A DNA stretch of 55,499 nt from Rubricoccaceae bacterium (GCA_024639085.1 JAHEJB010000001.1:1-55499); one strand, 5' to 3'; positions 1,960 through 31,042 are shown, numbered from the stretch's first letter. The notes: generated by a model from the sequence alone, not told the origin. Program-made: numbers and translations.

Positions 1960-2820
1960 CTAGAGGACGATTGTCCGATCTTCGGTGGCCAGCAATGTAT
2001 TCGGAAAGATCTGCTGCGCCGCATTAAGTATCTCGCCGAGTTGTATATCGTCGTGCCCTGGGTCGTGATGGAAGAGCGCTAGTTGTTTCACGTTGGCTTG
2101 TGCGGCCACCCGAGCCGCGCGCTCCCACGTTGTGTGACCCCATCCGATGCGCTTGGAATACTCTTCGGGTGTGTATTGTGCGTCACAAATAAGTAGATCG
2201 GCGTCGGATGCATTTTCGATGAGGCGCTCATCGTATTTCTGAATACCGTGCTCGTAGTCGGTACAGTAAATAACAGAGTTGCCGCCCGCCTCTACTTTGT
2301 ATCCGAATACAAATTGCGTGTGATGGACGGGGAAAGGAGTGACGGTGAGCTTCCCAACCTGAACAGGCTCGTCGTCCTTCAGGACAATCTGTTTTGTTTT
2401 CGCCGCCAGGTTATTGAACGAGATTGGAAAAAAGGGCACGGACATCTGTTCATTGAGCAGATCGAAGGGGGCGCCTTCCAAGTCCGACCCATAGAAGGTC
2501 ACACTATTCCTTTCATGGAAAAGCGGCGCGAAGAAAGGAATGGCTTGTATGTGATCCCAATGGAAATGAGATAGAAAAACGTGTAGATCTAACGGCTCTT
2601 GTTTGGATTGCGTAACAAGTTGGTGACCCAGCTCATGAGCTCCCGTCCCCATATCCAAGATGCACGAGGATCCACTTGAATGCTGAACTTCCACGCAGGC
2701 TGTGTTGCCTCCCGTCCCCAAATGTGAGGCAGTTGGCGTTGGAATTGAGCCACGAACGCCCCAGAAGCGAACGTTTATGCATTCCAAATTGCCACTAGCG
2801 CTTGGGGAGACGTCGGCCAT
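1960..2820 (-). CDS. MBL-fold metallo-hydrolase (candidate cyclic-nucleotide phosphodiesterase-like)
   Basis: 'RFWGVRGSIPTP' N-terminus and HxHxDH motif 'FLSHFHWDHIQAIPFF', later 'LFHHDPGHDD'. I place the start at ATG 2820 (MADVSPS...), 2 nt after the stop of the upstream AI-2E gene. The track's 2994 start would overlap that gene by 170 nt. Confidence 0.85.
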   Translation of the reverse strand: MADVSPSASGNLECINVRFWGVRGSIPTPTASHLGTGGNTACVEVQHSSGSSCILDMGTGAHELGHQLVTQSKQEPLDLHVFLSHFHWDHIQAIPFFAPLFHERNSVTFYGSDLEGAPFDLLNEQMSVPFFPISFNNLAAKTKQIVLKDDEPVQVGKLTVTPFPVHHTQFVFGYKVEAGGNSVIYCTDYEHGIQKYDERLIENASDADLLICDAQYTPEEYSKRIGWGHTTWERAARVAAQANVKQLALFHHDPGHDDIQLGEILNAAQQIFPNTLLATEDRTIVL

Positions 2821-2822
2821 AG

Positions 2823-3854
2823 CTAGAGGCGAAAGCGACGAAGTGTGATGGCTGTCTCCACAAGTATCACCTTTGCCACAGCTACCGTAGGAACGGCCAG
2901 AGCCATCCCGACCACACCAGCCAACCGACCTCCTAATAGAATGGCGAGGAGAACGGAAACCGGATGCAGTGACACGTTGCGGGCCGTTATCCACGGCTGG
3001 AGTATCACATTCTCGAGCGTCTGCACCAGGACGAAGACGATAACGATTCCAAGGATTTGGCCCATACCGCCCGTGGAAAGGACAGAAATGGCCAAAGTCA
3101 ATCCCGCGGATATAAGGAAACCTACGTATGGGATAAAGTTGGCGATACCCGTAAAAATGCCAAGCATCACGTAGTAATTGACTCCAACTAAACCAAGTCC
3201 GATGATTGTGGCGATGCCAACGAGCAATGCGACAAGTGATTGTCCCCGGAGATAACTCCCGAGCTGTGCATCAATCTTGTAGATCACGCCCATTGTGAAT
3301 TCGAAATAGCGATTCGGTACCAGCGAAACCAGCTTCTTCATTAACCTCGTTCCGTCACGCAGAAGGAAGAACAACACAAATGGAATAACCACGAGGTTGC
3401 CAATCATTGAAAGGGCGCCGGTTGCATTGCTCAGCAAATGTCTCTCCTGTGTCTCAATGGCTCGACGTGCCGATTCAGAAAGGCCGAGCGAGCCGGGTTC
3501 GACGAGAGGGAGAAGTTCCGCTAAGTCCGCCTCCAGGCGATCTATCAGAGCGAATAGACGTCCATCCCCTAATTCCCCCTGCCAACCAACGGCTTGTTCG
3601 GCGATGATTGGGACCAGCAGCCATCCAAGCACCACCACGAGCAACGACAAGCTGAAAAATATTACGGTAGCAGCTGTCGTTCGTCTCATGCCCCTCCGCT
3701 CGAGTCCGTTAACGAGTGGATTTAGGAGGTAGGCGATTATGGCCGCGACAAGAAAGAGAATCAGGAGGTCGTGGCCATAGACCACCAGCACCCCGATAGC
3801 TCCAAAAGCAGCAAGCCAAAGAGCGCCTCTAAACCATGGATTCCGCGTCGTCAT
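2823..3854 (-). CDS. AI-2E family transporter (PerM/UPF0118 permease)
   Basis: 343 aa polytopic membrane protein with the typical AI-2E layout. N-terminal TM pair, a soluble loop, then a C-terminal TM bundle 'FIPYVGFLISAG...LQPWITARNVSLHPVSVLLAILLGG'. Confidence 0.85.
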   Translation of the reverse strand: MTTRNPWFRGALWLAAFGAIGVLVVYGHDLLILFLVAAIIAYLLNPLVNGLERRGMRRTTAATVIFFSLSLLVVVLGWLLVPIIAEQAVGWQGELGDGRLFALIDRLEADLAELLPLVEPGSLGLSESARRAIETQERHLLSNATGALSMIGNLVVIPFVLFFLLRDGTRLMKKLVSLVPNRYFEFTMGVIYKIDAQLGSYLRGQSLVALLVGIATIIGLGLVGVNYYVMLGIFTGIANFIPYVGFLISAGLTLAISVLSTGGMGQILGIVIVFVLVQTLENVILQPWITARNVSLHPVSVLLAILLGGRLAGVVGMALAVPTVAVAKVILVETAITLRRFRL

Positions 3855-4404
3855 CTAGGATGGGATGGTCCGGCGGAGGGGATTCTACTTCAGATGCGAC
3901 GGGTTGGGCTTGAAGTCGTTCGTACGCTTTGCGCATAGATTCCAGCTCGTCGCTTACTTCCACAAGGCGTATCCCAACCAACCTGGCAAGCGACAAGAGA
4001 ATCTTGACGCCAAGGCGTGGATTGCGATCCAGAAGGCCTAACAGGTCGGGTTGGAATAGACTGAGTAACATGCAGTCGGATTTCGCCCGCGCCGTGGCGG
4101 AGCGAATGACTTCGTTGAGCAGCGCGATTTCGCCAAAGAAATCACCGTCATTAAGCTCGACGAGTTCACGCCCCGCGGGTTCAGATTGAATTGAGACGAC
4201 GCCTTTCGCAATGATGTACATCCCGAGGCCAGGCTCGCCCTGTGTGAAGATGGACTCGCCCGCCACATATTCGCGACGATGGAGAATGCGTCGAAGTATG
4301 GCAATGTCGCGGCGACTGAGGTCATCGAACAACGGGATATTGCGGAGAACATCCTCCTCATCTTCTCCGGTCCCGCCCAAAACGTTTTTCCAGAGGCTAT
4401 TCAT
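3829..4404 (-). CDS. stand-alone cyclic nucleotide-binding (CAP_ED) domain protein
   Basis: 'IPLFDDLSRRDIAILRRIL..REYVAGESIFTQGEPGLGMYIIAKG' and phosphate-binding cassette 'GDFFGEIALLNEVIRSATARA'. No HTH or other output domain. ATG at 4404 (a GTG lies at 4410). The 3' end overlaps the AI-2E start by 26 nt. Confidence 0.88.
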   Translation of the reverse strand: MNSLWKNVLGGTGEDEEDVLRNIPLFDDLSRRDIAILRRILHRREYVAGESIFTQGEPGLGMYIIAKGVVSIQSEPAGRELVELNDGDFFGEIALLNEVIRSATARAKSDCMLLSLFQPDLLGLLDRNPRLGVKILLSLARLVGIRLVEVSDELESMRKAYERLQAQPVASEVESPPPDHPILDDDAESMV

Positions 4405-4599
4405 AGACACGGTTAGTTGAGGGCCTCAAGGCCATAATTCGCGACAAAGAGGGATAACTTCAAGGTACGGTCCAGCATTAAGAATTGCATGAATGCGAGC
4501 CGTGCAGCACGATCTACTGCAGCGAAACAGTTTCTGTATTGACCGATCGAACACACGGCTGTACTCTGCCGTACTCCACATGCCATTACGCTTCCCTCT

Positions 4600-5382
4600 A
4601 TGACAAACCACCGTGTTTTTCTTGCCCTGACCTTATTTGTAGGTATCGGCATCGTTCTAGCTTCGTGCGACACAGCAACTCCAGCTCAACGCCCTACGGA
4701 GGTGACGATCAACGGAGTCACTTACGCCGTCATTGGGCAAGCTGATCTCGAGCAGACGAGCGATGGCCTAGTTGTGGGCAACATTGGTTCTTCAGGAAAC
4801 GATGGCGTGCGCGTCACCCCAGAGTTACCTATTGAAGTAGCGGACATCCGCACGATGCCCGTCGAACTTCCCGATAACGGTAGGTGGGGGATGCAGGTAT
4901 TCGGTGAAACATCCAGTGGTAGGACGGCACTTGCGACCGTCTGGAATCAAGCGATAAATGGAGCAGAACACGACATTGTGTTCGACTTCGCCTCGGAAAT
5001 GAACGTCTCCCGGATGATCCTTGAGTACTACCTGGGCGGCGAGTTGCAGTATTCAGTAGAGGTGCCTTCCGGCGGGGCTGGGAACCGTATAGCAAATGCC
5101 GGTCGAGGAACTAGCGGGCCTACATCCGTACACGTGCTCTGCGTAAATGGGGAACTCATTGTCGCGACCGATTACAACGGCGATGCTCCTTTGCAGGGCT
5201 GCTCCGGTGAACTTCTGTCAAACGTACCAGATGCTCCGGGACCAATCTGCGCAGACTTTATACAGGCGCGGCCGGTTACAGAAATTGCCTTTCCAGATGC
5301 CACGAGCCTGGAAGTAACAGCGAGAACGGTCCCGCAATTCACGATAACAGACGGTTTTGTGGGGCATTCCCCCAACCTATAG
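4600..5382 (+). CDS. hypothetical lipoprotein
   Basis: Signal peptide with lipobox 'GIVLASC'. No domain recognised by eye. Confidence 0.6.
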   Translation: MTNHRVFLALTLFVGIGIVLASCDTATPAQRPTEVTINGVTYAVIGQADLEQTSDGLVVGNIGSSGNDGVRVTPELPIEVADIRTMPVELPDNGRWGMQVFGETSSGRTALATVWNQAINGAEHDIVFDFASEMNVSRMILEYYLGGELQYSVEVPSGGAGNRIANAGRGTSGPTSVHVLCVNGELIVATDYNGDAPLQGCSGELLSNVPDAPGPICADFIQARPVTEIAFPDATSLEVTARTVPQFTITDGFVGHSPNL

Positions 5383-5520: not shown

Positions 5521-5949
5521 ATGAATTACATCACTAGTAAGACCACGCGTTCAGCGTTCGCGCTCTCTGCCGGAACGCTGATGATTTTTCTTACAACTTC
5601 CAGTTCCTTTGCCCAGCCTGCAGGCCGGATGCAAATGGATCCAGGTGAACGCGTTGAGCAGATGCTTGTGGCAATTGACGAGCACGTCGATATCACGGAT
5701 GAGCAGGCAGATCAGCTGCGTCCCATTCTCCTCGAAGAAGGCGAACGTCGACGTGAAGTGTCTGAGCAACTCGGACGTTCGAACCGGGAAGCGGTGCGGG
5801 CAGCTATGGACGCGATACGTGCAGAGACCAATCAACGAGTACGTGAAATCCTTACCGAAGAACAGATGACCAAGTATGTGGAGTGGCAGCAATCTCGTTC
5901 TCGGGGACCACGCCAGGGGCGACGCCCAGGTGGGCGCGGTGGCCAGTAA
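5521..5949 (+). CDS. periplasmic Spy/CpxP-like (LTXXQ motif) protein with Gly/Arg-rich tail
   Basis: Signal peptide '...SSSFAQP', two LTXXQ-type motifs ('ITDEQADQL', 'LTEEQMTKY') and helical charged composition. C-terminus is 'SRSRGPRQGRRPGGRGGQ'. Confidence 0.65.
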   Translation: MNYITSKTTRSAFALSAGTLMIFLTTSSSFAQPAGRMQMDPGERVEQMLVAIDEHVDITDEQADQLRPILLEEGERRREVSEQLGRSNREAVRAAMDAIRAETNQRVREILTEEQMTKYVEWQQSRSRGPRQGRRPGGRGGQ

Positions 5950-5986
5950 TGTATGGTCTTCATTCGTTCTATTCCGATTCAAAAAA

Positions 5987-8593
5987 ATGACCAGAATGAC
6001 TTCGGCTGCTATCCCCCTACGCTACGCCGCGTTTTCTCTTCTTATCGGCGGCTTGCTGTGTTCCAGAGTAGAGGCACAGGAATCTAGCGTGCCGACAATC
6101 TCTGGCTACGTGGTTGATGGAAATACCGGAAATGGTCTTCCCTCGGCCTCGGTCGCCATCTGGATGCTGCCACGCACTACCTCAGGAGAAACGACGCTAG
6201 CTACGGGCGCAATTACACGTGCCGATGGTCGGTTCGAAATTTCTGGCCTGCGTGCGGGCAGTTATCGTGTTGTTGCAAGCTTCGTTGGCTACGTCTCCGA
6301 ATCAATAGAAACCGTTGAGCTCGTACGAGGTGCCCCAAATGCAGATGTTGGTACCATTACTCTCAACGAGGATGTCGCTCTACTCGAAGAAGTAGAGGTC
6401 GCGGCCGAACGCCAAGGTGTTGAATTTCAAATTGACAGGACCGTGTACAATGTGGCCGACGACCCGCTTGCACAGGTCGGAACTGTAACGACGATTCTTG
6501 AGCACATTCCTTCCGTTGATGTGGACATTGACGGAAACGTGAGCTTACGGGGCGTCTCAAACGTCGCCATTCTCATTAATGGCCGCGCGGCACCTGTGAG
6601 CGGCGATTTTCTAGCCGCCTACCTTCAGAGTCTACCGGCAAGCGCCATTGCGAGTGTCGAGGTTATCCCTAATCCGTCGGCCCGCTACGAGCCGGACGGA
6701 ATGGGAGGCATTCTGAACCTCGTCCTCAAAGAGGACGTGGAATTGGGAATTGGTGGCGCCCTTACAGCAGGTGGCGATTCGCAAGGGGGCGGAAGCGTTT
6801 CTGGGCTTTTGGCTTACAATCGAGGCCCAATCACGGTGACGTCCTCATACGGATTTCGGCGGAACGTGCGAGAGTCTGATGGCGGACGTTTTCGGATTAA
6901 CAGATATCTAGACCCTGAAACAAGTCTTGATCAGGACATTCTGGACATACGGACCAACACGTCTCATTTCGGCAGCATTACGGCCGACTACGCCATTTCC
7001 GACAATTCGCTTTTTACTATTGCTGGCCAAGCGGGCTATCGGGGAGAAGGTGAAGACGAGTCAACCACGTTTGTGGAATTGGACGCAACGGACAATCCGA
7101 CACTCAGCTACGAAAGATTGGGCGATGCATCCGGGTCCGGCTGGAACGGTGATGTCAGACTCGGATTCCGGCAGGATTTCGGGACCCCTAGCCAGGGCGA
7201 AGCGCCTTCCGAAGATGGAGGCGGCTTTCGCGGGCGACGTGGAGGACACGGCCGTGGTGGGCGCGGAGGGCAGAGTGGTGGAGGCCCTCCAACAGGACTC
7301 GGAAGCCACACGCTTTCGGCCGAGGCGCGGTTTGACATCTCGTCTAACGCGGACGAAAACATCCTGACAGAGCAGCTACTCAACGATGCCGGAGATATCC
7401 TTGAATTGCAGCAAACGAGCGACGGCAGTGACCGCAGCGAAGGTTCTTTGCAGATTGACTATGTACGCCCGCTTCTGGAAATCGGAACGGAGACCCGAAT
7501 CGAGATCGGCTATCGTGGTGAAATCGAACGCCTGAGGAGTGATTTCTTTTCCGAGACGTTTGATGATTCGCTTGGCACATATGTCCCCGACAATGCGCTC
7601 AACAACGCGTTCGATTACGACCAGCAGATCCACGCGGCGTATCTACAGTTCGCCACGAAACTTGGAGCTTTGGGCGTTCAGCTCGGCCTGCGTGCAGAGA
7701 CGGCTACGACGACATTTACTCTTCAGAACACGAGCGAGGCTTTCGACAACAACTACACGAGCCTCTTTCCGAGTGTGTTCTTTGTGTACGAGGTAACAAC
7801 GAACACGGCGCTCCGGGCGAGTTACAGCCGACGCATCAACCGCCCACGCACATGGTACCTCAACCCGTTTCCAAGTGTCGATGACCCGCTGAACATCCGT
7901 CAGGGTAATCCTTTCCTTCGGCCTGAATATGTGGATGCTGTCGAACTAGGCTTCGTTCAATACGTGGGAATCGGATCGCTCCAACTCACGCCATATTATC
8001 GTCGAACAACCGATGTCATCCGCCGATTCCAGTTGTTGGGAGATGACGGAGTTACGACGAGTACGTTCGAAAATCTCGCGGAAAACGACTCTTACGGAGT
8101 AGAATTCGTGGCGTCGTTTCGCACGGGTATTGTCCGAGGTAGCGCGAGCATCGAGGGCTTTAAAACCGTAACCGACGGATCGAACGTAGATTCCGATCTC
8201 GAAAACAATTCGTTTGGGTGGGGCGGACGCCTCAACTCCACATTCTCCGTTCGAGAAGGAATGGACTTACAGGCAAGCGTGCGATATCGTGCACCTATGA
8301 ATACTGAGCAGGGCAGCACGGGAGCTCGGACCTTCGTGAACCTTGGCCTCCGACAACGTTTTTTGGACGATCGTGCCAGCTTATCCGTCCAGCTTCGAGA
8401 TCCATTCGATACAGGCCGCTTCGAATCCATATTTGACCAACCACGACTCTATCAGGAGTTCTCTCGCTCCTTCGGTGGAAGACAACTCGGCGTTTCACTC
8501 ACATATGCGTTCGGGCAACAGGACCGTCAGCGACGAAATAATGGACCAGAAGGTGGCGGCGAGGGGTTCGAAGACGTTGGCCTTGACGGCTAG
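5987..8593 (+). CDS. TonB-dependent-receptor-like outer membrane beta-barrel protein (CarboxypepD_reg + plug + OMP_b-brl_3-type barrel)
   Basis: Start moved to ATG 5987 (MTRMTSAAIPLRYAAFSLLIGGLLCSRVEAQE signal peptide). Carboxypeptidase-regulatory-like fold 'ISGYVVDGNTGNGLPSASV...GRFEISGLRAGSYRVVASFVGY'. Plug 'NVSLRGVSNVAILINGR', then a long beta-strand-rich barrel. Confidence 0.88.
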   Translation: MTRMTSAAIPLRYAAFSLLIGGLLCSRVEAQESSVPTISGYVVDGNTGNGLPSASVAIWMLPRTTSGETTLATGAITRADGRFEISGLRAGSYRVVASFVGYVSESIETVELVRGAPNADVGTITLNEDVALLEEVEVAAERQGVEFQIDRTVYNVADDPLAQVGTVTTILEHIPSVDVDIDGNVSLRGVSNVAILINGRAAPVSGDFLAAYLQSLPASAIASVEVIPNPSARYEPDGMGGILNLVLKEDVELGIGGALTAGGDSQGGGSVSGLLAYNRGPITVTSSYGFRRNVRESDGGRFRINRYLDPETSLDQDILDIRTNTSHFGSITADYAISDNSLFTIAGQAGYRGEGEDESTTFVELDATDNPTLSYERLGDASGSGWNGDVRLGFRQDFGTPSQGEAPSEDGGGFRGRRGGHGRGGRGGQSGGGPPTGLGSHTLSAEARFDISSNADENILTEQLLNDAGDILELQQTSDGSDRSEGSLQIDYVRPLLEIGTETRIEIGYRGEIERLRSDFFSETFDDSLGTYVPDNALNNAFDYDQQIHAAYLQFATKLGALGVQLGLRAETATTTFTLQNTSEAFDNNYTSLFPSVFFVYEVTTNTALRASYSRRINRPRTWYLNPFPSVDDPLNIRQGNPFLRPEYVDAVELGFVQYVGIGSLQLTPYYRRTTDVIRRFQLLGDDGVTTSTFENLAENDSYGVEFVASFRTGIVRGSASIEGFKTVTDGSNVDSDLENNSFGWGGRLNSTFSVREGMDLQASVRYRAPMNTEQGSTGARTFVNLGLRQRFLDDRASLSVQLRDPFDTGRFESIFDQPRLYQEFSRSFGGRQLGVSLTYAFGQQDRQRRNNGPEGGGEGFEDVGLDG

Positions 8594-8603
8594 CGGACAA
8601 CCC

Positions 8604-11600
8604 TTACGCGGGTAGCGCAATTACGAAGGAGGCTCCGCCACTCTCGTTGCCTTCAAGCTTCATCGCACCGCCGTGGCCCTGGGTAACGATTTCGTAAGAG
8701 AGCGACAGCCCCAGGCCCGTGCCCTCGCCCGATGGCTTCGTCGTAAAGAACGGCTCGAAGATCTTTCGTCGCATGTCTTCGGGGATGCCAGGGCCGTTGT
8801 CGGAAATGCGGATTTCAACAGCGCTCGTGCGCCGCTTGGTAGACACAGAAACGTTTGGTTGATAGCCTTCCTCGGTCGTCTTTGCTTTTTCCTGGACGGC
8901 GTAGAAGGCATTCCCGAAAAGGTTGATAAGAACGCGCCCAATTTCCTGAGGGATGAGTTCAACCTCACCCGCGTTTTCGTCAAATTCCTGCTTCAAGTCA
9001 ATGTTGAAATCGACGTCGCGGGCCCTCTGGCCGTGGAAAGCCAGATTGGCGTACTCCTGGACAAACGCATTGATGTTCACTGCCACGCGCTCACTAGCCC
9101 CACCTCGTGAATGCTGAAGCATGGCATGAACGATCCTATCTGCACGCTGTCCGTGCTCGTGAATGCGGCGCGCGTTCTTTTTGAGGTCTTCGATCAGGTC
9201 GTTTACTTCCGGAAGGGCATCGGCCACAGAGCGCGAAGAATCGGAGCTGAGTTCTTCATTCAGTTCATCAGCTAGATCCACACTCAGTTGCGCGAAGTTG
9301 TTCACGAAGTTCAGCGGGTTCTTTATCTCGTGAGCAATCCCCGCCGTCAGCTGTCCCAGAGATGCGAGTTTCTCGGCTTGAATTAGCTGGGTTTGCGTTG
9401 TTTTAAGATGGTCGTGACTTTCCTCCAATGCTGTGTAGGCCTTTTCAAGTTCGCGCGTCTGCTCAAGTTCTGCCGCCTTTCGTTCGTTCTCCACTTTTAA
9501 AACTTTGGCTTCGGCCTCCGCCATTTCCGCTCGCATCTCAGCCTCACGGCGCTCGGCGCGAACTCGTTCCTGCGACAGAAGTCGTTCGCGTTGGAATCTA
9601 TCGGCAACCACGACGATACCAACGAAAAGAAGAGCGTAGAGTAGATAGGCCCAAATCGTACGCCACCAAGGAGGCGCCACACGAACGTGAACAGCCAACG
9701 GCTCCTCGCTCCATACCCGATCGGCGCTAGCTGCCTTTACACGGAGCGTGTAATTGCCTGGCGCGAGGCCTGTGTAAACAGCTTTGTGTTCGGTACCGAG
9801 GTCGCGCCATTCTTCTTCTAGCCCGTCCAACATGACCGCATATCGATTCCGATCAGTATCGCTGAAGTGGAGAGCCGCGAACTCAAACGTGACAACGGTG
9901 TGGTCGTAGTCGAGATAAATCGTTTCGGCCACTGGAGCGGCTACGCGCAACGCAGAATTCTCTCCAGGTACTACTTCCTCCTCAAGAATTCGGACACCGG
10001 TAAGCGAGACTTGTGGAGGATACGGGTTGGACGTTCCCGCTTGCGCCGGATCGAAGGCGATAAGCCCATCTGCGCCGCCAAAGAACAGCGTACCGTTAGT
10101 CGCTCGAAATGAGGCCTTGGTCAGAGTCCGAAGTCCAGGGGTTCGCTCGCTATCGAAAACGCGAAACGTTTCCGTTACTGGGTCGAACCGAGCCAAGCCA
10201 CGGCTTGTGTTCAGCCATAGAAAGCCGGAATCGTCCTCCACAATGGCCCGAACAGCATTGCCTGGCAAATCGCTGTTTGTTTCCGAGTATGCCCTAAATC
10301 CTTCAGATGGCCTGGCCGGGTTGAATCTATTCAGCCCTCCTTGTTCAGTCCCAATCCACAATTCCCCATTGGCTCGGGCGTGCAGTGACAAGATTGAGCT
10401 GTCCGAAATGCTCGTCGTATCTGCCGGGTCGTGTCTGAAATGCTCGAATGAAACCCCGTCCGTGTCATTAACAAGACGATCAAGGCCGCCTGCTGAACCA
10501 ACCCAGATGGTTCCCTCGGAACCTCCAACAATCGACTCAATGGTTTGATGGCTTAGGCTGGATGCTCGAGATGGATCATGGGAAATGTCACGTGATGACC
10601 CCGAGACAGGGTCAAAAAGAGTAATTCCTTTCTCCAGACTGCCAATCCAGAGTTGACCGTTATCGTCTTCAAAGATGGCTGAGACAACGAGAATGCTAAG
10701 CGGGACTCCGCGAAACGAACCGCTGCCTCGGTCGAATTCTTTCAGCCCCTCCCGCGTACCCAGCCAGAATTGCCCGGATCGACTCTCTTGTATGACCGTG
10801 ATATAAAGATTGCCACCATCCTGACTTCCGCTAGGAAGAAAATGCTCGAACGTGCCATTGCTGTCGGCCAACCGATTCAGCCCTTTTTCCGTGCCCACCC
10901 AGGTGGAACCATCGGATGTTTGGTTGACGGACAGGACTGTGTTGTTACTTAAACTCCCTGCTTGGTTGTCTTCGTGCTTATAAATGCGGAAAGAGCTACG
11001 GGCACGATCAAACCAATTGAGGCCCCCATATGTGCCAATCCAAAGCACCCCCTGGCGGTCGCTCAAAATGGTGCGCACGAAGTTGTGACTCAGTGCATCG
11101 GGTCTACTCTCATCGGGCAGAAAACTCGTCTGCCGGTTGTCGGCATCCAGCTTGTGTAAACCAGCACCGGCTGTGCCGATCCAAAGGCTTCCATCTGATT
11201 CCTCGTACAACGATGTGATGATCGTCGCGCCAACGCCACCCTCCAGCGTAATGGAATTGAAGGTTGCCGAAACAGGATCAAAACCTCTCACGCCTCCACC
11301 AAAAGTGCCTATCCAGAAGCCTCCTTGTTCTCTTGGCGAGATAGCCGAGATGATATTTCCTGGAGGGTCATCCAGCACTTCGTAGGCTACAAAGTTCTCA
11401 GATTCCGTGTCGAAGTGGTTCAGACCGCCACCGTCTGTGCCTACCCAAAGTGCCCCTTCTGCGTCGAGGTTCAAAGAAAGTACCCGATCCTGACTCAACG
11501 ACGACGCGTCTCCGTTTGTGTGCTTGAAGATTGTGAATGTGCCTTTTTCAGGGTCCAGGCGCCCAAGGCCCTCGTCTGTGCCTACCCAAAGTGTCCCGTT

Positions 11601-12047
11601 TGCTTCTTGTAGAAGCGCGTTAATGTCATCGTTTGGCAGACTGCTAGGGTCGTCGGGATTGTGGCGAAAGTGTGTGAACGTCTCAGTTGCCGGGTCAAAT
11701 CGGTTCAGTCCTCCGTCCGATGTGCCAACCCAGATATATCCATCGATATCTTCGAGAAGCGAGATCACTCCATTTGCAGAAATCGTCGTGCTGTCGTCCG
11801 CAACTCGGCGAAACTCCGTGACATCGTATCCATCAAATCTGTCGAGACCGTCCAACGTACCGATCCAGATAAATCCTCTTACATCCTGAAGGACTGCGTT
11901 GATTTTCTCCTCCGAGAGTCCATCTTCTACAGAAAGATGCTGGAAAGAGATGTCCTGCGCTGCCGCCATCCGCAGACCTGCCAGCCCGAGAGCAAGGGCA
12001 GTTAGCGCCGCAAATTGAGCGATGGAGAAAGAAGTGCCAGTACGCAT
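8604..12047 (-). CDS. sensor histidine kinase with periplasmic two-component-regulator propeller repeats and Y_Y_Y domain
   Basis: Many 'WIGT/WVGT..GGLNRFD' propeller repeats. Y_Y_Y-like region '[37 protein letters not shown]', a TM segment and a coiled coil. H-box '[12 protein letters not shown]', N-box 'NLFGNAFYA', G-boxes 'DNGPGIP' and 'GEGTGLGLS'. Start set at ATG 12047 (MRTGTSFS...), 10 nt after the upstream gene's stop. Confidence 0.9.
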
Positions 12048-12057
12048 TGCGTGGTGG

Positions 12058-13485
12058 TTAGACGGAGGCTTTGGCAGTGCCTGCCATGCGTAGACGCTCA
12101 AGTTCGGCAGCGGCTTCGTCGGAAACGGACGTGAATCGGATCGTCAGCATCGGACCTCCGACACTCGTTGTTTCGGCCTCCACAACCTTCGCGTAGACAT
12201 CTTCCAGCATGCCATCCGATTCAATCGGGATGGTCAGCTTGATGTCTGTTCGTTCCGCTACCGGCTGGGCCGTAAGCACTACGGCCTGGTTTGGCGATAG
12301 CCGGACCATCTGGGCTTTGAGTTCCCCATCTACAATCTCCTTCCCATCTAGAGGAGTGTAGGTGCAGGCTAAAGGAACGGTGAGCGCCGTAAGTGGGTCG
12401 GCCGTCGTCACCGGCACGTCGAGATTGTATTCGCCGCCCACCCCCACCACGAAATGTACAAGGATGCGTTCTACAAAGCCTTTCATCGCCACTTCCTGGG
12501 AGGTGCCGAGCCGGACATGATCGCCGACTTTGTCCTTGGTCGTTGTTGAAATCACAACTTCGCCGGAAGCGGCCAATGCCTGAATCCTACTGGTCAGGTT
12601 AACTGGGCTTCCGACTACGCCGTATTTCGCACGTTTCTCAGATCCGATGTTGCCTACGACTACCTCGCCCGTGTTCACAGCTATGCCCATCTCCAGATCC
12701 GGTAGATCTCTTTTTGACATCTTCGTGTTTACATCCTTCATGGCGCATTGCATTGCCACCGCGCACGCGACTGCGCGTTCAGCGTGATCCGTACGGGGAA
12801 TAGGCGCGCCAAATATGACGAGGATTGCGTCGCCAATGAACTCGTCAATTGTACCGCCGTATTCGTCGATGACCTCCGTCATTCTACCGAGATATACGTT
12901 GAGGAGCTCTACAACGCGCTCAGGCTCGAGTCGCTCCGAGAGGGCAGAAAAGCCGCTAAGGTCGCTCATTAGCACGCTCACTTCTCGGCGTTCACCGCCT
13001 AGCGCAAGAGAATCCGTGTCCGCTAGAACGGCTTGCGCGACTTCATCGGAGAGATAGCGCCCAATAGCTTCGCGGACGAAAACTGCCTCACGCTCTCTTG
13101 CCACTACCTCGCGGGCATTATTCAGCGTCACTTCAAGGTCCGAAAGATCGATGGGCTTGGTTAGAAAGTCGAAGGCGCCCTGGTTCATAGCCGTGCGAAT
13201 ATTCTCCATGTCGCCGTAGGCTGTTACGACAATCGCCTTCTGCTGCTGCTCGCGTTCTCTTAGTCGCCCTAGAAGTGTAAGCCCATCCATTCTGGGCATG
13301 TTGATGTCTGTAACAATGATCTCAATCTCTGGGTCGATATCCAGTTTTTCCAACGCTTCTACGCCATCTCCAGCGAAGTCGAGCATGAGCAAACCATCCC
13401 GCACATGCCGCCGGAATTTCTGACGGATGAGAGGAGCCAGGTCTGGCTCGTCGTCAACGAAGAGAATCTTAAACGCGGCCTCCAT
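12058..13485 (-). CDS. response-regulator receiver fused to class III nucleotidyl cyclase plus unassigned C-terminal domain
   Basis: REC: '[10 protein letters not shown]...[12 protein letters not shown]...TKP'. Cyclase: '[16 protein letters not shown]...[19 protein letters not shown]...[37 protein letters not shown]'. About 120 further C-terminal residues are unassigned. Start at ATG 13485 ([12 protein letters not shown]). Confidence 0.9.
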
Positions 13486-13593
13486 TGGCCCTCCGTAATA
13501 ATGATGCGCTAAAGTAGCGGTCGTTCCACAGGCGTTCCAAGAGAAGGGCATCGCGACAGCCCTTGCTTCGAACCGTTATTGTTTGGTAAGGTG

Positions 13594-14691
13594 ATGTATC
13601 GTATGATAGCTCCCCTGCTTTTTGGTCGGGACCAAGGATTCTTCCCAGCTAGGTTCAATTTGTATTCAGTACGTCGAGTTTTACTATCCATTCCTCTACT
13701 TCTTGTTTTCGGAATCACGTCGAACGCGAGCACGCCGGAACGCGTCATTGACGGAGTAGTCGCTCTGCCACCTGATACGACAGCCGACTTGTCGTGGGCG
13801 GGACGCTTAATCCGGTTGCACTCTACTTTGGCGGAGATCGGTGGCCAGCCAGGCAACGAGGCGGCGTCTGGGCTTGTTGCGGCTGCTTTTGAAGATGCCC
13901 GCACGCTCGCGCAAAGTCCAGGTATGTTGGAAAGTGCGTCATTTCGGTCGATGTACCTCGATGCTCATCGGTTATATGAACAACACCATTACATGGTGGC
14001 TCCCATAGCTCTCTCCGGCGCAGAACTGAGCGTCTTGCGTGCGGCACAATTTGCTCAATTGGCGTCGGTCGATCCGACGTTGCTACAAGGTGTGGATCTC
14101 CGACAGCCAGTTGTCGAGCAGGAGCCCGAACGGGAACAAGAAAGCCTTATTCCATCGATTCTACGCGTGCCGGCATCCGCTGAAGCCGCAGTGGCCGCGC
14201 ATCAACGCAGGATAATGCGGCAGTATGGTGGATTCGGAGGGATGCGACGTGCAAGTCGCGGGTTCTTCCCAATGATCGCGCGCGCGCTGCGTCGCCGCGG
14301 TGTTCCTGCAGAATTAAAGTATGTCGCTGTCATAGAAAGCAGTCTTGATCCAAACGCAGAGAGTGGCGCTGGGGCTATCGGTCTTTGGCAATTCATGCCC
14401 GAGACAGGCGCGATGTACGGACTCTCCGAGGATGATTTGCGTAGTCCGTCACGTTCCACAAGCGCTGCTGCTCATCATTTGCAGCGTCTGGGCACTATGT
14501 TCAACGGCGACTGGCAACTGGCCCTGGCAGCCTACAACAGTGGGGGTGGTCGTGTCCGGTCAGCTGTCCGCCAAGCCCGTCGACGTTTGGGCCGGCAACC
14601 TACGTTCTGGGATATCTACCATCAACTCCCCGCAGAGACTCGCAACTATGTGCCAAAGTTCATTGCGACGGCGCGGGTGATGGGAAGCTAA
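13594..14691 (+). CDS. SLT-domain lytic transglycosylase (paralog of the gene at 2-1891, no LysM)
   Basis: 'ELKYVAVIESSLDPNAESGAGAIGLWQFMPETGAMYGL...LALAAYNSGGG...PTFWDIYHQLPAETRNYVPKFIA'. ATG at 13594 (the track's TTG is at 13579). Confidence 0.88.
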   Translation: MYRMIAPLLFGRDQGFFPARFNLYSVRRVLLSIPLLLVFGITSNASTPERVIDGVVALPPDTTADLSWAGRLIRLHSTLAEIGGQPGNEAASGLVAAAFEDARTLAQSPGMLESASFRSMYLDAHRLYEQHHYMVAPIALSGAELSVLRAAQFAQLASVDPTLLQGVDLRQPVVEQEPEREQESLIPSILRVPASAEAAVAAHQRRIMRQYGGFGGMRRASRGFFPMIARALRRRGVPAELKYVAVIESSLDPNAESGAGAIGLWQFMPETGAMYGLSEDDLRSPSRSTSAAAHHLQRLGTMFNGDWQLALAAYNSGGGRVRSAVRQARRRLGRQPTFWDIYHQLPAETRNYVPKFIATARVMGS

Positions 14692-28600: not shown

Positions 28601-29052
28601 TGGAAGAGCTCCGGGCATTTCCCGCCTACTCCTTCACGACACAGCAGCGCGACGGGAAATCATTCATCCTGGACGAGGTTCGTCAGAAGTGGGTTCGTCT
28701 TACGCCTGAAGAGTGGGTTCGGCAGCACCTTCTCTGTGCGCTCAAGGATTACGGCTACCCGCGAGGATTGACCGCTGTCGAGAAAGGGTTTGATTACAAC
28801 GGACGTACATGGCGCGCGGACGTCGCCGTATTTGACAGCAAGCATTCTCCGCTCCTCCTAGCCGAGTGCAAGGCGCCGAACGTCCCGATTACCGAAGCCG
28901 TGTTCGATCAGGTTGCGCGGTACAATGCGGTCATAATGTCGCGCGTGTTCCTTGTAACAAATGGGCATGTTCTCCACTGCGGTGTTGTGGACAAAGGCAG
29001 CGTCCGTTTCCTTGATTCTCTTCCTGCCCACACCGAGATCCTCATTCCCTAA
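28600..29052 (+). CDS. HsdR N-terminal-domain (PD-(D/E)XK nuclease fold) protein
   Basis: 'FILDEVRQKWVRLTPEEWVRQHL...GYPRGLTAVEK......RADVAVFDSKHSPLLLAECKAPNVPI..AVFDQVARY'. The D...ECK motif is present. Start set at ATG 28600. Confidence 0.85.
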   Translation: MEELRAFPAYSFTTQQRDGKSFILDEVRQKWVRLTPEEWVRQHLLCALKDYGYPRGLTAVEKGFDYNGRTWRADVAVFDSKHSPLLLAECKAPNVPITEAVFDQVARYNAVIMSRVFLVTNGHVLHCGVVDKGSVRFLDSLPAHTEILIP

Positions 29053-29137
29053 AGTTTGCGGCTCTCCGCGATATCTCGTTTCTTCTGGCCGACACCAGAA
29101 GCGAGTATTTTTCGGTCCCCGTGTCTTTTCTCACATT

Positions 29138-31042
29138 ATGAGCAGTTCATCAACTCGCGGCCGACTTTCTGCGCTTCTTGAGCGTACGCCACCGTTCAAC
29201 CTTCTTGGCGACGACGACCGTACGTCGCTGATTAGCTCGTTGACGGCAGTCAACTACGAGTCCGGAGAAGTCATCCTGGAGCAGGGCCTTGACGTCCACA
29301 AGTCGCTTTTCGTTGTAGAGGAAGGCCTTGTGCGGCTGATGAATGTGGAGGAAAAACGGTTCATCGATATGAGCGGGGCGTCTTCGCAGTTTGGTTCGTA
29401 CGGGATCATTCAGGGAGGCATTCTGCCTTACGAGGCGCGCGCAGTGGAGGACACGACGTGCCACCTCGTTCCCTCAGATAAGCTGCGGGAGTTGCTGGAT
29501 GCCAACGAGGATTTCGCAGCGTACTTCGACGAGGAAATCAAGCGATACGTCCGAACGATTGACACGGCACTTGACGCATCTGGCGCCTTTCTCCTGTTTG
29601 ATACGGCCCTCGTGCGACTTAGTAGGGACGCCGTGATTGTCAGCCCGCGCACGACCATTCAGGAGGTTGCCCAGGCAATGAGCGACGCCGATGCCGACAC
29701 AGTGGTTGTGGTGGAGAATGATGTCGCACTCGGCGTCATCACAGAAGGCGACATCGTGGAAAAAGTAGTAGCAGAGGGAATGTCTGCCGAGACTCATGCG
29801 ATGCAATTAGTGGACCGTCCGGCGGTGGTGCTGGATGGCGGTGAACGACTCTTTGACGCTGTTCAGGCCATGATGCAGCACCGAATCCGGCGGATTGTTG
29901 TGATTGAGACGCCGCAAGATGGGACCGAAACAGAGTTTGGCATACTCTCGGCAGAAGATGTGAGCCATTACCGCGGCCTCGACCCGGTGGCCACGATCGA
30001 GTTGATCGAACGGGCCCGCTCTATATCGGCGTTGGCCTCACTTCGGAGGGAGTCCAACAGGCGGTTGCTGCGGCTATATCAACAAGGTGTGCAGAGCGAA
30101 GATCTCCTTGGCGTTGTCTCCGAACTGGACGACCAGATAAAGCGGCGGCTTCTACAGCTTGTGGAAGAAGAGGTCCGCAAAAACAACCCCGCGCTGGTCA
30201 TGGGTATGAGTTGGGGATGGATGTCGTTTGGAACGGCGGGGCGAAAGGAGTCTACAATTCGGGGACGCCAACATAACGGCCTCGTTTATGCTGATTCGGC
30301 GGTTCCAGCCGAAGCCGAAAAGGCTGCAAAATGGTTTTTGCTTCTGGCCGAGCGAGCGTGTGAGGCCCACGAAGAGTGCGGCTATTTCCCCTCAGATACG
30401 GGCATTGTTGCTCGCAAGGAGGCATTCTGTCAGCCGGTTTCGAAGTGGCAGGAAATGTTCGCGCACTGGGCAGAAGGCATAGATGCTCCCATTACGGCCC
30501 GCGCAGTCTCGACATTCGATGTTCGCGTTATTTATGGCGACGAATCGCTTGGCGATGCCGTTCGGGCAACCATTGATGAGCACACGCCAAACCCGCGCCT
30601 GCTGTCCATAATGGTTAGCCAGGGCGTAGAAGTCAACGTGCCGATCTCCGTATTCAATCGCTTCCAGCTGGACCGCAACGAGAACGACGAAGAAGGCTTT
30701 GACATGCGGGCCAAGGGAATTCGCCCCGTTGTAGAGTTCGCGCGGGCTTTGGCATTGGAAATCGGCTTCACGAAATCGGCCAGCACATTTGAGCGGCTGA
30801 GGGCGGTGGAGTCGTCCGAGAGTCACTCCGCCGCTGAGGCCCGGACCTTGCTCACTGCCTTCGTCACACTCGCGGACCTCCACCTTCGCCTCCAGATGCA
30901 GGCGGCCGAAGTAGGCGAAACCCCAACCGACTGGATGGACCCCGGCAAGCTCCACAAGAGCCAGCAGAACCTACTCAAAGACACGCTCAAGGCCGTTCAG
31001 CGTGTGCAGCAGTCGCTGGCGAGCAGGTATGTGGAGCGGTAG
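29138..31042 (+). CDS. cNMP-binding + CBS-pair + DUF294 nucleotidyltransferase signal-transduction protein
   Basis: cNMP-binding domain ('PPFNLLGDDDRTSLISSL..VNYESGEVILEQG'). Two CBS modules ('VIVSPRTTIQEVAQAMSDADADTVVVVEN', 'VVLDGGERLFDAVQAMMQHRIRRIVVIE'). Then an NTase-like 'WGWMSFGTAGRKESTIRGRQHNGLVY' and a helical C-terminal domain. Start at ATG 29138. Confidence 0.85.
   Translation: MSSSSTRGRLSALLERTPPFNLLGDDDRTSLISSLTAVNYESGEVILEQGLDVHKSLFVVEEGLVRLMNVEEKRFIDMSGASSQFGSYGIIQGGILPYEARAVEDTTCHLVPSDKLRELLDANEDFAAYFDEEIKRYVRTIDTALDASGAFLLFDTALVRLSRDAVIVSPRTTIQEVAQAMSDADADTVVVVENDVALGVITEGDIVEKVVAEGMSAETHAMQLVDRPAVVLDGGERLFDAVQAMMQHRIRRIVVIETPQDGTETEFGILSAEDVSHYRGLDPVATIELIERARSISALASLRRESNRRLLRLYQQGVQSEDLLGVVSELDDQIKRRLLQLVEEEVRKNNPALVMGMSWGWMSFGTAGRKESTIRGRQHNGLVYADSAVPAEAEKAAKWFLLLAERACEAHEECGYFPSDTGIVARKEAFCQPVSKWQEMFAHWAEGIDAPITARAVSTFDVRVIYGDESLGDAVRATIDEHTPNPRLLSIMVSQGVEVNVPISVFNRFQLDRNENDEEGFDMRAKGIRPVVEFARALALEIGFTKSASTFERLRAVESSESHSAAEARTLLTAFVTLADLHLRLQMQAAEVGETPTDWMDPGKLHKSQQNLLKDTLKAVQRVQQSLASRYVER

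Follow-up and report, generated by a model that had tools for sequence, protein, structure and literature searches.

We analysed a window of 55,499 nucleotides from a Rubricoccaceae bacterium (GCA_024639085.1 JAHEJB010000001.1:1-55499) and found, on its minus strand, a receiver-cyclase gene followed directly by a gene for a sensor histidine kinase. The two probably form a two-component pathway with a cyclic-nucleotide output, most likely 3',5'-cyclic GMP (cGMP), a reading to which we give a probability of roughly 0.65. The receiver-cyclase (12058..13485, 475 amino acids) joins a receiver, a class III cyclase domain of the Cya2 type and a PilZ-like tail, as seen from the open reading frame, Pfam and 120 homologues of the same architecture. 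The kinase (8604..12047, 1147 amino acids) was assigned using Pfam and a comparison of its periplasmic part with 4A2L and 3V9F. That the former protein is a phosphorylation-controlled cyclase of the Cya2 clade is nearly certain and, judged from its sequence, it probably makes cGMP. What is new here is a variant in input and wiring within the known Cya2-type family.

The cyclase gene ends with TAA at 12060-12058, followed by ten nucleotides (ccaccacgca) and the kinase ATG at 12047-12045. An earlier interpretation made from the DNA alone (the sequence-only reading) had described this 10-nt distance and a single operon, and its boundaries are exact at the nucleotide level. It had also paired a propeller/Y_Y_Y sensor kinase with the receiver-cyclase, a pairing supported by the complete set of receiver residues and by an adjacent kinase in eight Rubricoccaceae loci. 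The cyclase start at 13485 agrees better with the homologues than a longer reading frame from 13551. Scanning the operon for sigma-70 promoters and terminators yielded nothing above shuffled sequences.

The catalytic domain and its relation to Cya2

Pfam detects Response_reg (residues 7-119, 84 bits) and Guanylate_cyc (residues 167-345, 92 bits) in the cyclase protein. The catalytic domain (12451..12987, minus strand) scores 92.4 bits against PF00211, for which the cut-off is 21.9, and its assignment is backed by a gapless alignment to 2W01, a residue map and clade membership. It contains the two metal-binding aspartates (Asp175 and Asp219) and the transition-state residues Asn296 and Arg300 of class III cyclases, together with Lys335, the likewise conserved Arg285 and the base-specifying pair Glu215 and Gly289. 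Glu215 is encoded by GAG at 12843-12841 within IDEFIGDA and Gly289 by GGC at 12621-12619, precisely the codons that the sequence-only reading had named. As also claimed there, the glutamate occupies the position of the adenylate cyclase lysine; the spacing was misjudged, as it lies two residues before IGD (four before Asp219) and not three. Our homologue set comprised the 120 closest database proteins (52-88% identity, all of the same architecture, from Rubricoccaceae or Rhodothermales where named). Glu215, both metal aspartates, Asn296, Arg300, Arg285 and Lys335 are invariant in this set, and Gly289 is kept in 117/120 with alanine in the other three. Such conservation indicates that the Glu/Gly pattern did not arise by chance.

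Two entries of the Protein Data Bank (PDB) match best: Synechocystis Cya2 (2W01) and 6FHT, a chimera of phytochrome and Cya2(E488K). To 2W01 the window protein can be aligned without a gap over 199 residues (E 1e-64), and its identity to the Cya2 core is 53% by BLASTP. CyaB, an adenylate cyclase of the Lys/Thr type, comes next and reaches about half the Cya2 score. IDEFIGD falls on Cya2 IDEFMGD, the segment around Gly289 falls on Cya2 KYGVVGAQVNLTYR, and the pair Glu215/Gly289 superimposes on Glu488/Gly562. This alignment places Glu/Gly, not Lys/Asp, at the specificity positions, in line with the sequence-only reading, whose Glu/Gly pair for Cya2 also agrees with the literature (PMC6005667, PMC4215837). 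The key residues of Cya2 are Asp448, Glu488, Asp492, Arg450, Gly562, Asn569, Arg573 and Lys608, and the enzyme prefers GTP through its Glu-Gly pair (PMC6005667). Seven of the eight are kept in the window cyclase (D175, E215, D219, G289, N296, R300 and K335). A single Glu488Lys change makes Cya2 an adenylate cyclase, and the wild type turns over little ATP (PMC5995499). It is by homology to Cya2, with this one-residue switch, that guanine selection in the window enzyme would mean cyclisation of GTP to cGMP.

Cya2 (sll0646, Synechocystis sp. PCC 6803) is the one structurally solved bacterial guanylate cyclase. Besides the Glu/Gly pair and the metal-binding, asparagine, arginine and lysine residues, it shares with the window protein the transducer element, a homologous C-terminal extension of about 115 residues and the clade. 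The two differ in their input, as Cya2 is membrane-bound with CHASE2 and a membrane domain, whereas the window protein is soluble, has a phospho-receiver and is encoded alongside its own kinase. They also differ at the positions of Cya2 Tyr572 and Arg450, both of which are serine in the window protein.

To place the enzyme among other receiver-cyclases, the specificity positions were read in all of 80 receiver-cyclase loci from one-genome-per-species contigs. Every Rhodothermales protein has Glu/Gly and a C-terminal extension of about 105-116 residues, and one Myxococcota protein is Glu/Gly as well. The Glu/Gly receiver-cyclase L024:10001-12013, from a Myxococcota metagenome-assembled genome, ends in a HisKA-HATPase module in place of the PilZ-like tail. 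Glu/Thr was found in two proteins (Lysobacterales, Mycobacterium) and Lys/Thr in the alphaproteobacterial and Bacteroidota receiver-cyclases, most of which have no extension. In a maximum-likelihood tree of 101 catalytic domains, all 39 Glu-type domains fall into one clade (support 100/96), among them those of Cya2, of the window protein and of representatives with CHASE2, GAF and PAS domains, whereas the 54 Lys-type domains, nearly all from receiver-cyclases, lie outside it. This placement shows the window enzyme to be a Cya2-clade module that was given a receiver input, rather than a receiver-adenylate cyclase with two point changes. The Lys/Thr receiver-adenylate cyclases of Alphaproteobacteria and Bacteroidota resemble it in the order of receiver and cyclase and in an adjacent kinase with a similar core, but differ in their specificity residues, in mostly lacking the PilZ-like tail and in belonging to separate clades.

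The receiver (REC, residues 7-119, 13129..13467, minus strand; PF00072, 84 bits) has an acidic pocket, the phospho-acceptor Asp60 (13308-13306) and the conserved threonine and lysine. D11, D12, D60 and K110 never vary across the 120 homologues, and position 88 holds threonine or serine. A histidine kinase is encoded in the same operon after the 10-nt gap, and this adjacency is conserved. The receiver is nearest to those of AtoC/NtrC and the kinase core is nearest to AtoS, as expected for a cognate pair. Between receiver and catalytic domain runs a helical linker (12988..13128, minus strand) with the cyclase transducer element IGRYLSDEV, in which Tyr144 is invariant. This motif matches the FGRY transducer element described for Cya2 (PMC5995499).

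A divergent PilZ-like tail

The C-terminal tail (12061..12390, minus strand, roughly 110 residues) is a divergent PilZ-like β-barrel with a terminal helix, as judged from an AlphaFold2 model, Foldseek and a tail profile. Pfam gives only a sub-threshold PilZ match (residues 386-465, 17.4 bits, cut-off 22.5). The AlphaFold2 model of residues 346-475, built from 17 orthologous tails, has a predicted local distance difference test score of 87.6 and displays six strands and a terminal helix. When searched against the PDB with Foldseek, its top matches were all PilZ domains, namely YcgR (E 1e-5), MotI, Alg44, PP4397 and VCA0042, with a probability of 1.00 and a TM-score of about 0.6. The sequence-only reading had noted an extra beta-rich domain and guessed at a PilZ-like barrel; model and structure search both back this guess.

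The tail has the fold of a canonical PilZ domain (PF07238), but neither its binding motifs nor a profile score above the cut-off. An RxxxR motif was found in none of the 17 aligned tails, and the window protein has RLSPNQ at the [D/N]xSxxG site. Only L23, L34-D35-G36, Y86 and K88 are invariant in this alignment, the conserved features being LDGK, a serine and YAK. PilZ domains without the motifs RxxxR and [D/N]xSxxG do not bind cyclic di-GMP (c-di-GMP), and cyclases go unmentioned in the survey of PilZ-related domains that reports this (10.1101/814665). Compared with the PilZ domains of YcgR, MotI and Alg44, the tail shares the six-stranded barrel and C-terminal helix but lacks RxxxR, has a degenerate second motif and always follows a Cya2-type cyclase in the same chain.

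When a profile built from the tail was run against 1.8 billion representative proteins, it gave 1442 matches, 637 of them at E<=1e-10. The sequence-only reading had called cGMP rare in bacteria; with 1442 representative clusters found by the tail-domain profile, the enzyme family is widespread. A cyclase domain is present in all of the 46 long matches that were scanned, each time with the tail at the C-terminal end. Their inputs are diverse: REC (10), CHASE2 (10), GAF (9), HisKA (7), HAMP (5), PAS (4), protein kinase with STAND ATPase (3), dCache (2) and metallo-β-lactamase (MBL; 1). Where the motif is readable, tail-bearing cyclases have glutamate, rarely aspartate, at the lysine position and glycine, alanine, threonine or serine at the second. 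A tyrosine before the transition-state arginine occurs only in two cyanobacterial-like proteins. One of these, P0151, shares 72% identity with the Cya2 core, shows an N-terminus of the CHASE2 type and bears the tail motifs too, which identifies the tail as the counterpart of the Cya2 C-terminal extension. In Cya2 this extension is 118 residues long and structurally uncharacterised, and phytochrome-Cya2 fusions are almost inactive without it (PMC5995499). Since removal of the extension had this effect, our analysis suggests that the tail most likely serves the cyclase as an internal activator or stabiliser and not as a receptor for c-di-GMP.

The sensor kinase and neighbouring genes

Pfam detects Reg_prop repeats (174 bits), Y_Y_Y, HisKA and HATPase_c in the kinase. 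Within 8604..12047 (minus strand) the chain begins with a signal or transmembrane segment and two Reg_prop propellers, followed by Y_Y_Y (9678-9866), a transmembrane helix (9603-9668), HisKA (9099-9359) and HATPase_c (8610-8948). The 760 periplasmic residues match Bacteroides hybrid two-component sensors (4A2L/4A2M, E 3e-94; 3V9F and 3VA6). As in these hybrids (BT4663; 4A2L/4A2M), a homologous double Reg_prop propeller with Y_Y_Y is present; the fused receiver and AraC-type domain of the hybrids are absent. The chain ends after HATPase_c and is thus a classical kinase, unlike the Bacteroides hybrids, with the separate receiver-cyclase as its output. Cyclase and kinase genes are adjacent and co-oriented in L008, L010-L013, L015, L018 and L019, the eight Rubricoccaceae loci with enough flanking sequence, which include Rubricoccus marinus and Rubrivirga. 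More distant Rhodothermales combine the same cyclase with other kinases, either short cytoplasmic ones or TPR kinases with extra receivers.

Several genes around the pair vary between genomes. A convergent TonB-dependent receptor gene (5876..8593) was considered as the glycan-uptake partner of the kinase and rejected, being absent at this place from the 84%-identical locus L012 and from all other relatives. It belongs to a segment at 5521-8593 (plus strand), encoding a CpxP/Spy-like periplasmic protein (weak NCBIfam matches) and the TonB-type receptor (CarboxypepD_reg/OMP_b-brl_3), that is inserted between the kinase and the genes downstream when compared with all related loci. Upstream of the cyclase gene lies a divergent gene for an SLT lytic transglycosylase (13579-14691, plus strand), as it does in nine related loci. 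In Rubrivirga (L010:2094-8442), genes for flagellar regulation and export, namely those for FlhA, FlhB, an FlhF-like protein, a ParA-like protein and a sigma factor, are found just beyond the transglycosylase gene.

About 4 kb downstream of the kinase, behind a lipoprotein gene and the two inserted genes, the window contains a trio of genes on the minus strand (4410..1960). The first (3829..4410, 193 amino acids; PF00027, 75 bits, and PDB alignments) encodes a stand-alone cyclic nucleotide monophosphate (cNMP)-binding protein, a candidate reader, with an intact phosphate-binding cassette (FGEIALL...RSATA). The second (2823..3854, 343 amino acids; PF01594, 204 bits) encodes an AI-2E family transporter and shares its first 26 nt with the cNMP-binding gene. 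The third (1960..2820, 286 amino acids; PF12706), with its ATG 2 nt after the transporter stop, encodes an MBL-fold hydrolase, a candidate cyclic-nucleotide phosphodiesterase. Near the locus, the one strong terminator-like site is a GC-rich hairpin of 14 bp with a T-run behind it (1911-1941), located between the MBL gene and a convergent LysM/SLT gene. The lipoprotein (4600..5382, plus strand, 260 amino acids) is predicted from the lipobox LASC. It has no family match in Pfam or NCBIfam, is found in the same position in L012 (73% identity), L013, L018 and L095, and may belong to the system as an accessory.

Comparison of related loci brings the trio closer to the cyclase. In L010 and L011 (Rubrivirga), as in L015, genes for a cNMP-binding protein of 184 residues, an AI-2E transporter and an MBL protein come within 30-150 nt after the kinase gene on the same strand, and in L012, L013 and L018 a single lipoprotein gene on the opposite strand stands between kinase and trio. 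Three genomes of another Rhodothermales family (L021-L023) have the order MBL, cyclase, short kinase, cNMP-binding protein and AI-2E transporter. The pairing of cNMP-binding and AI-2E genes is kept in every Rhodothermales locus examined. Within the same genomes the cNMP-binding protein is better conserved than the cyclase (70-82% versus 58-84% identity). We also took a census of 151 Rhodothermales genomes, in which 36 have both the cyclase and the cNMP-binding protein, 12 only the cyclase, 10 only the cNMP-binding protein and 93 neither. With kinship between genomes ignored, this co-occurrence has an odds ratio of 28 (Fisher p 1e-15). The two genes lie no more than 6 kb apart in 19 genomes from two families. 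The window contains a second cNMP-binding protein (28961-31042, plus strand), a 693-residue frame with an N-terminal cNMP-binding domain, which is a possible further reader of the same messenger.

The MBL gene accompanies the cyclase in two gene orders and is not found beside the cNMP-binding/AI-2E pair where the cyclase is missing or unlinked. Furthermore, the representative protein P0138 (878 amino acids) unites Lactamase_B_2, HisKA (without an ATPase domain), REC, a Glu/Gly cyclase and the PilZ-like tail in one chain. The binuclear metal site HxHxDH...H...D...H of the window MBL protein is complete, with H85, H87, D89, H90, H167, D188, H229 and H251 invariant in nine orthologues. By structure, Foldseek places it near YhfI, RNase Z, PhnP, yeast PDE1, Apyc1 and an MBL protein of Brucella whose structure contains AMP or GMP. 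It thus resembles the MBL phosphodiesterases (Apyc1/NF041851, yeast PDE1) as well as YhfI, RNase Z and PhnP in its full metal-ligand set, in a full-length profile match and in its structural neighbours.

Weighing the proposed cGMP pathway

According to the mechanism we propose, the membrane kinase would bind a periplasmic ligand via its double β-propeller and Y_Y_Y domain, a sensor type that Bacteroides uses for glycan fragments, and would autophosphorylate its HisKA histidine. Asp60 of the receiver, whose gene ends 10 nt upstream, would then accept the phosphoryl group, as suggested by adjacency, conserved pairing and intact residues. Once phosphorylated, the receiver may use the helical linker and transducer element to draw two Cya2-type catalytic domains together in a productive dimer, in which Glu215 and Gly289 would select guanine as in Cya2 and GTP would be converted to cGMP. 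The PilZ-shaped tail, counterpart of the Cya2 extension needed for full activity, would activate or stabilise the cyclase. From the gene context, the signal would probably be read by the cNMP-binding protein that is translationally coupled to the AI-2E transporter and removed by the MBL-fold phosphodiesterase-like hydrolase. In its mechanism the pathway would resemble Cya2 and the other class III cyclases under receiver control.

Several observations weigh against this mechanism, some of them in the active site. Cya2 Tyr572, which strongly enhances guanylate cyclase activity (PMC4215837), corresponds to Ser299 (NLTYR to NLTSR) and the position is serine, alanine or glycine in 120/120 homologues. 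The phosphate-contacting Arg450 of Cya2 corresponds to Ser177 (MSDLSGFS), with serine or alanine in 99/120 homologues and arginine in 19/120. Moreover, the nucleotide preference of Cya2 is kinetic and not one of affinity, which is similar for ATP and GTP (PMC4284465), and the engineered mycobacterial cyclase Ma1120, in which Lys/Asp/Ala was changed to Glu/Gly/Tyr, became only dual-specific (PMC4215837). With the equivalents of Tyr572 and Arg450 missing, production of cGMP is likely but short of proven. On the input side, the kinase locus has no linked polysaccharide-utilisation genes, a further difference from the Bacteroides hybrids. The periplasmic glycan-type sensor of the sequence-only reading is homologous to Bacteroides glycan sensors as stated above, while the word glycan holds only by analogy. 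For the candidate reader, a preference for cAMP or cGMP cannot be read from the RSATA cassette or the rest of the sequence. Moreover, 10 Rhodothermales genomes have the cNMP-binding/AI-2E pair but not the cyclase, which rules out the cNMP-binding protein as an exclusive cyclase partner, and in other families the pair is unlinked from the cyclase. The candidate eraser matches the NCBIfam cyclic nucleotide-degrading phosphodiesterase NF041851 over its full length with 73 bits, far below the family cut-off of 400, so that the phosphodiesterase label is putative. We also tried to place it specifically with Apyc1, but Foldseek gave no separation from RNase Z, YhfI and PhnP.

The active-site differences raise the question of whether the output is cAMP, or cAMP and cGMP together, with a Glu/Gly pair that does not enforce GTP use in the absence of the Cya2 tyrosine. 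Ser299 in place of the activity-boosting tyrosine, the similar affinities of Cya2 for both nucleotides and the merely dual specificity of the Ma1120 mutant would all fit an adenylate or dual-specificity cyclase. In addition, four class III cyclase genes were found in the genome, which is 89% complete, and not one of them has a canonical pair of the Lys/Asp or Lys/Thr kind, so cAMP would need some other enzyme. The other host cyclases, on contigs C87, C162 and C30, have Gln/Lys (L001), His/Ala (L003) or, in L004, glutamate at the first position but no transition-state asparagine. We nevertheless consider a cAMP-producing enzyme unlikely. The adenine-contacting lysine is replaced by an invariant glutamate, Glu488Lys alone creates adenylate cyclase activity in a Cya2 whose wild type turns over little ATP, and the whole Glu clade stands apart from the Lys/Thr receiver-cyclases. 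Loss of activity, with the protein serving mainly as a phospho-sink or scaffold and its cyclase domain weak or dead in this lineage, is the least probable of the alternatives, and we judge it very improbable. It could be argued from Ser177 at the Arg450 position, as no arginine is found at the alternative strand position either; however, active Lys/Thr cyclases likewise lack arginine at this site, and both metal aspartates, Asn296, Arg300, Arg285 and Lys335 are invariant over the 120 homologues down to 52% identity.

A different question is whether the tail is a working receptor for c-di-GMP, cGMP or GTP that exerts feedback or cross-talk control instead of passive activation. Its clear PilZ fold, including the C-terminal helix of canonical PilZ domains, an xLSxxG-like remnant of the second motif in relatives, the few family members that exceed the Pfam PilZ threshold and the dependence of Cya2 activity on the tail are all compatible with such a role. 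It is nevertheless improbable, somewhat more so than cAMP production, given that RxxxR occurs in 0/17 aligned tails, that the window protein has RLSPNQ at the [D/N]xSxxG site and that PilZ domains without both motifs do not bind c-di-GMP (10.1101/814665). We retain the activating or stabilising role for the tail within the cGMP pathway.

Beyond the cyclase itself, a writer/reader/eraser arrangement of the cyclase and the trio is plausible on the basis of genomic context. The chances that the cyclase and the downstream trio together make up part of a dedicated cGMP circuit are about even. A more far-reaching version, which we regard as doubtful, is a self-contained circuit in which the kinase-controlled cyclase writes the signal, the cNMP-binding protein gates or regulates the AI-2E transporter and the MBL protein erases the signal as a cGMP phosphodiesterase, the PilZ-shaped tail being obligatory in all Cya2-type guanylate cyclases. 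A precedent for a linked writer and reader is Xanthomonas campestris XC_0250/XC_0249 (PMC3770947), where the gene of a cGMP-producing cyclase is likewise linked to that of a cNMP-binding receptor. XC_0250, however, is no Cya2-type enzyme and has a very different active site, with Ala, Leu and Ala in key places, and the XC_0249 receptor has a GGDEF output, whereas the cNMP-binding protein of the window stands alone and is coupled to a transporter gene.

The roles of cGMP in bacteria are still largely open, with a handful of systems studied (Synechocystis Cya2, Rhodospirillum centenum and Xanthomonas XC_0250/XC_0249). The pathway described here would offer a tractable system, with a two-component input, a Cya2-type module and candidate reader and eraser genes that adjoin it within the family. 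As the family is present in culturable marine Rhodothermales (Rubrivirga, Rubricoccus marinus), the pathway is open to genetics and biochemistry. The divergent PilZ fold provides a domain identity for the Cya2 extension, which optogenetic engineers have found necessary for activity but which was uncharacterised. If the tail is indeed an obligatory module of Cya2-type guanylate cyclases, this would explain the activating extension of Cya2. The module of cyclase plus tail is widespread and joined to many inputs, including REC, CHASE2, GAF, PAS, HAMP, protein kinase and MBL domains.

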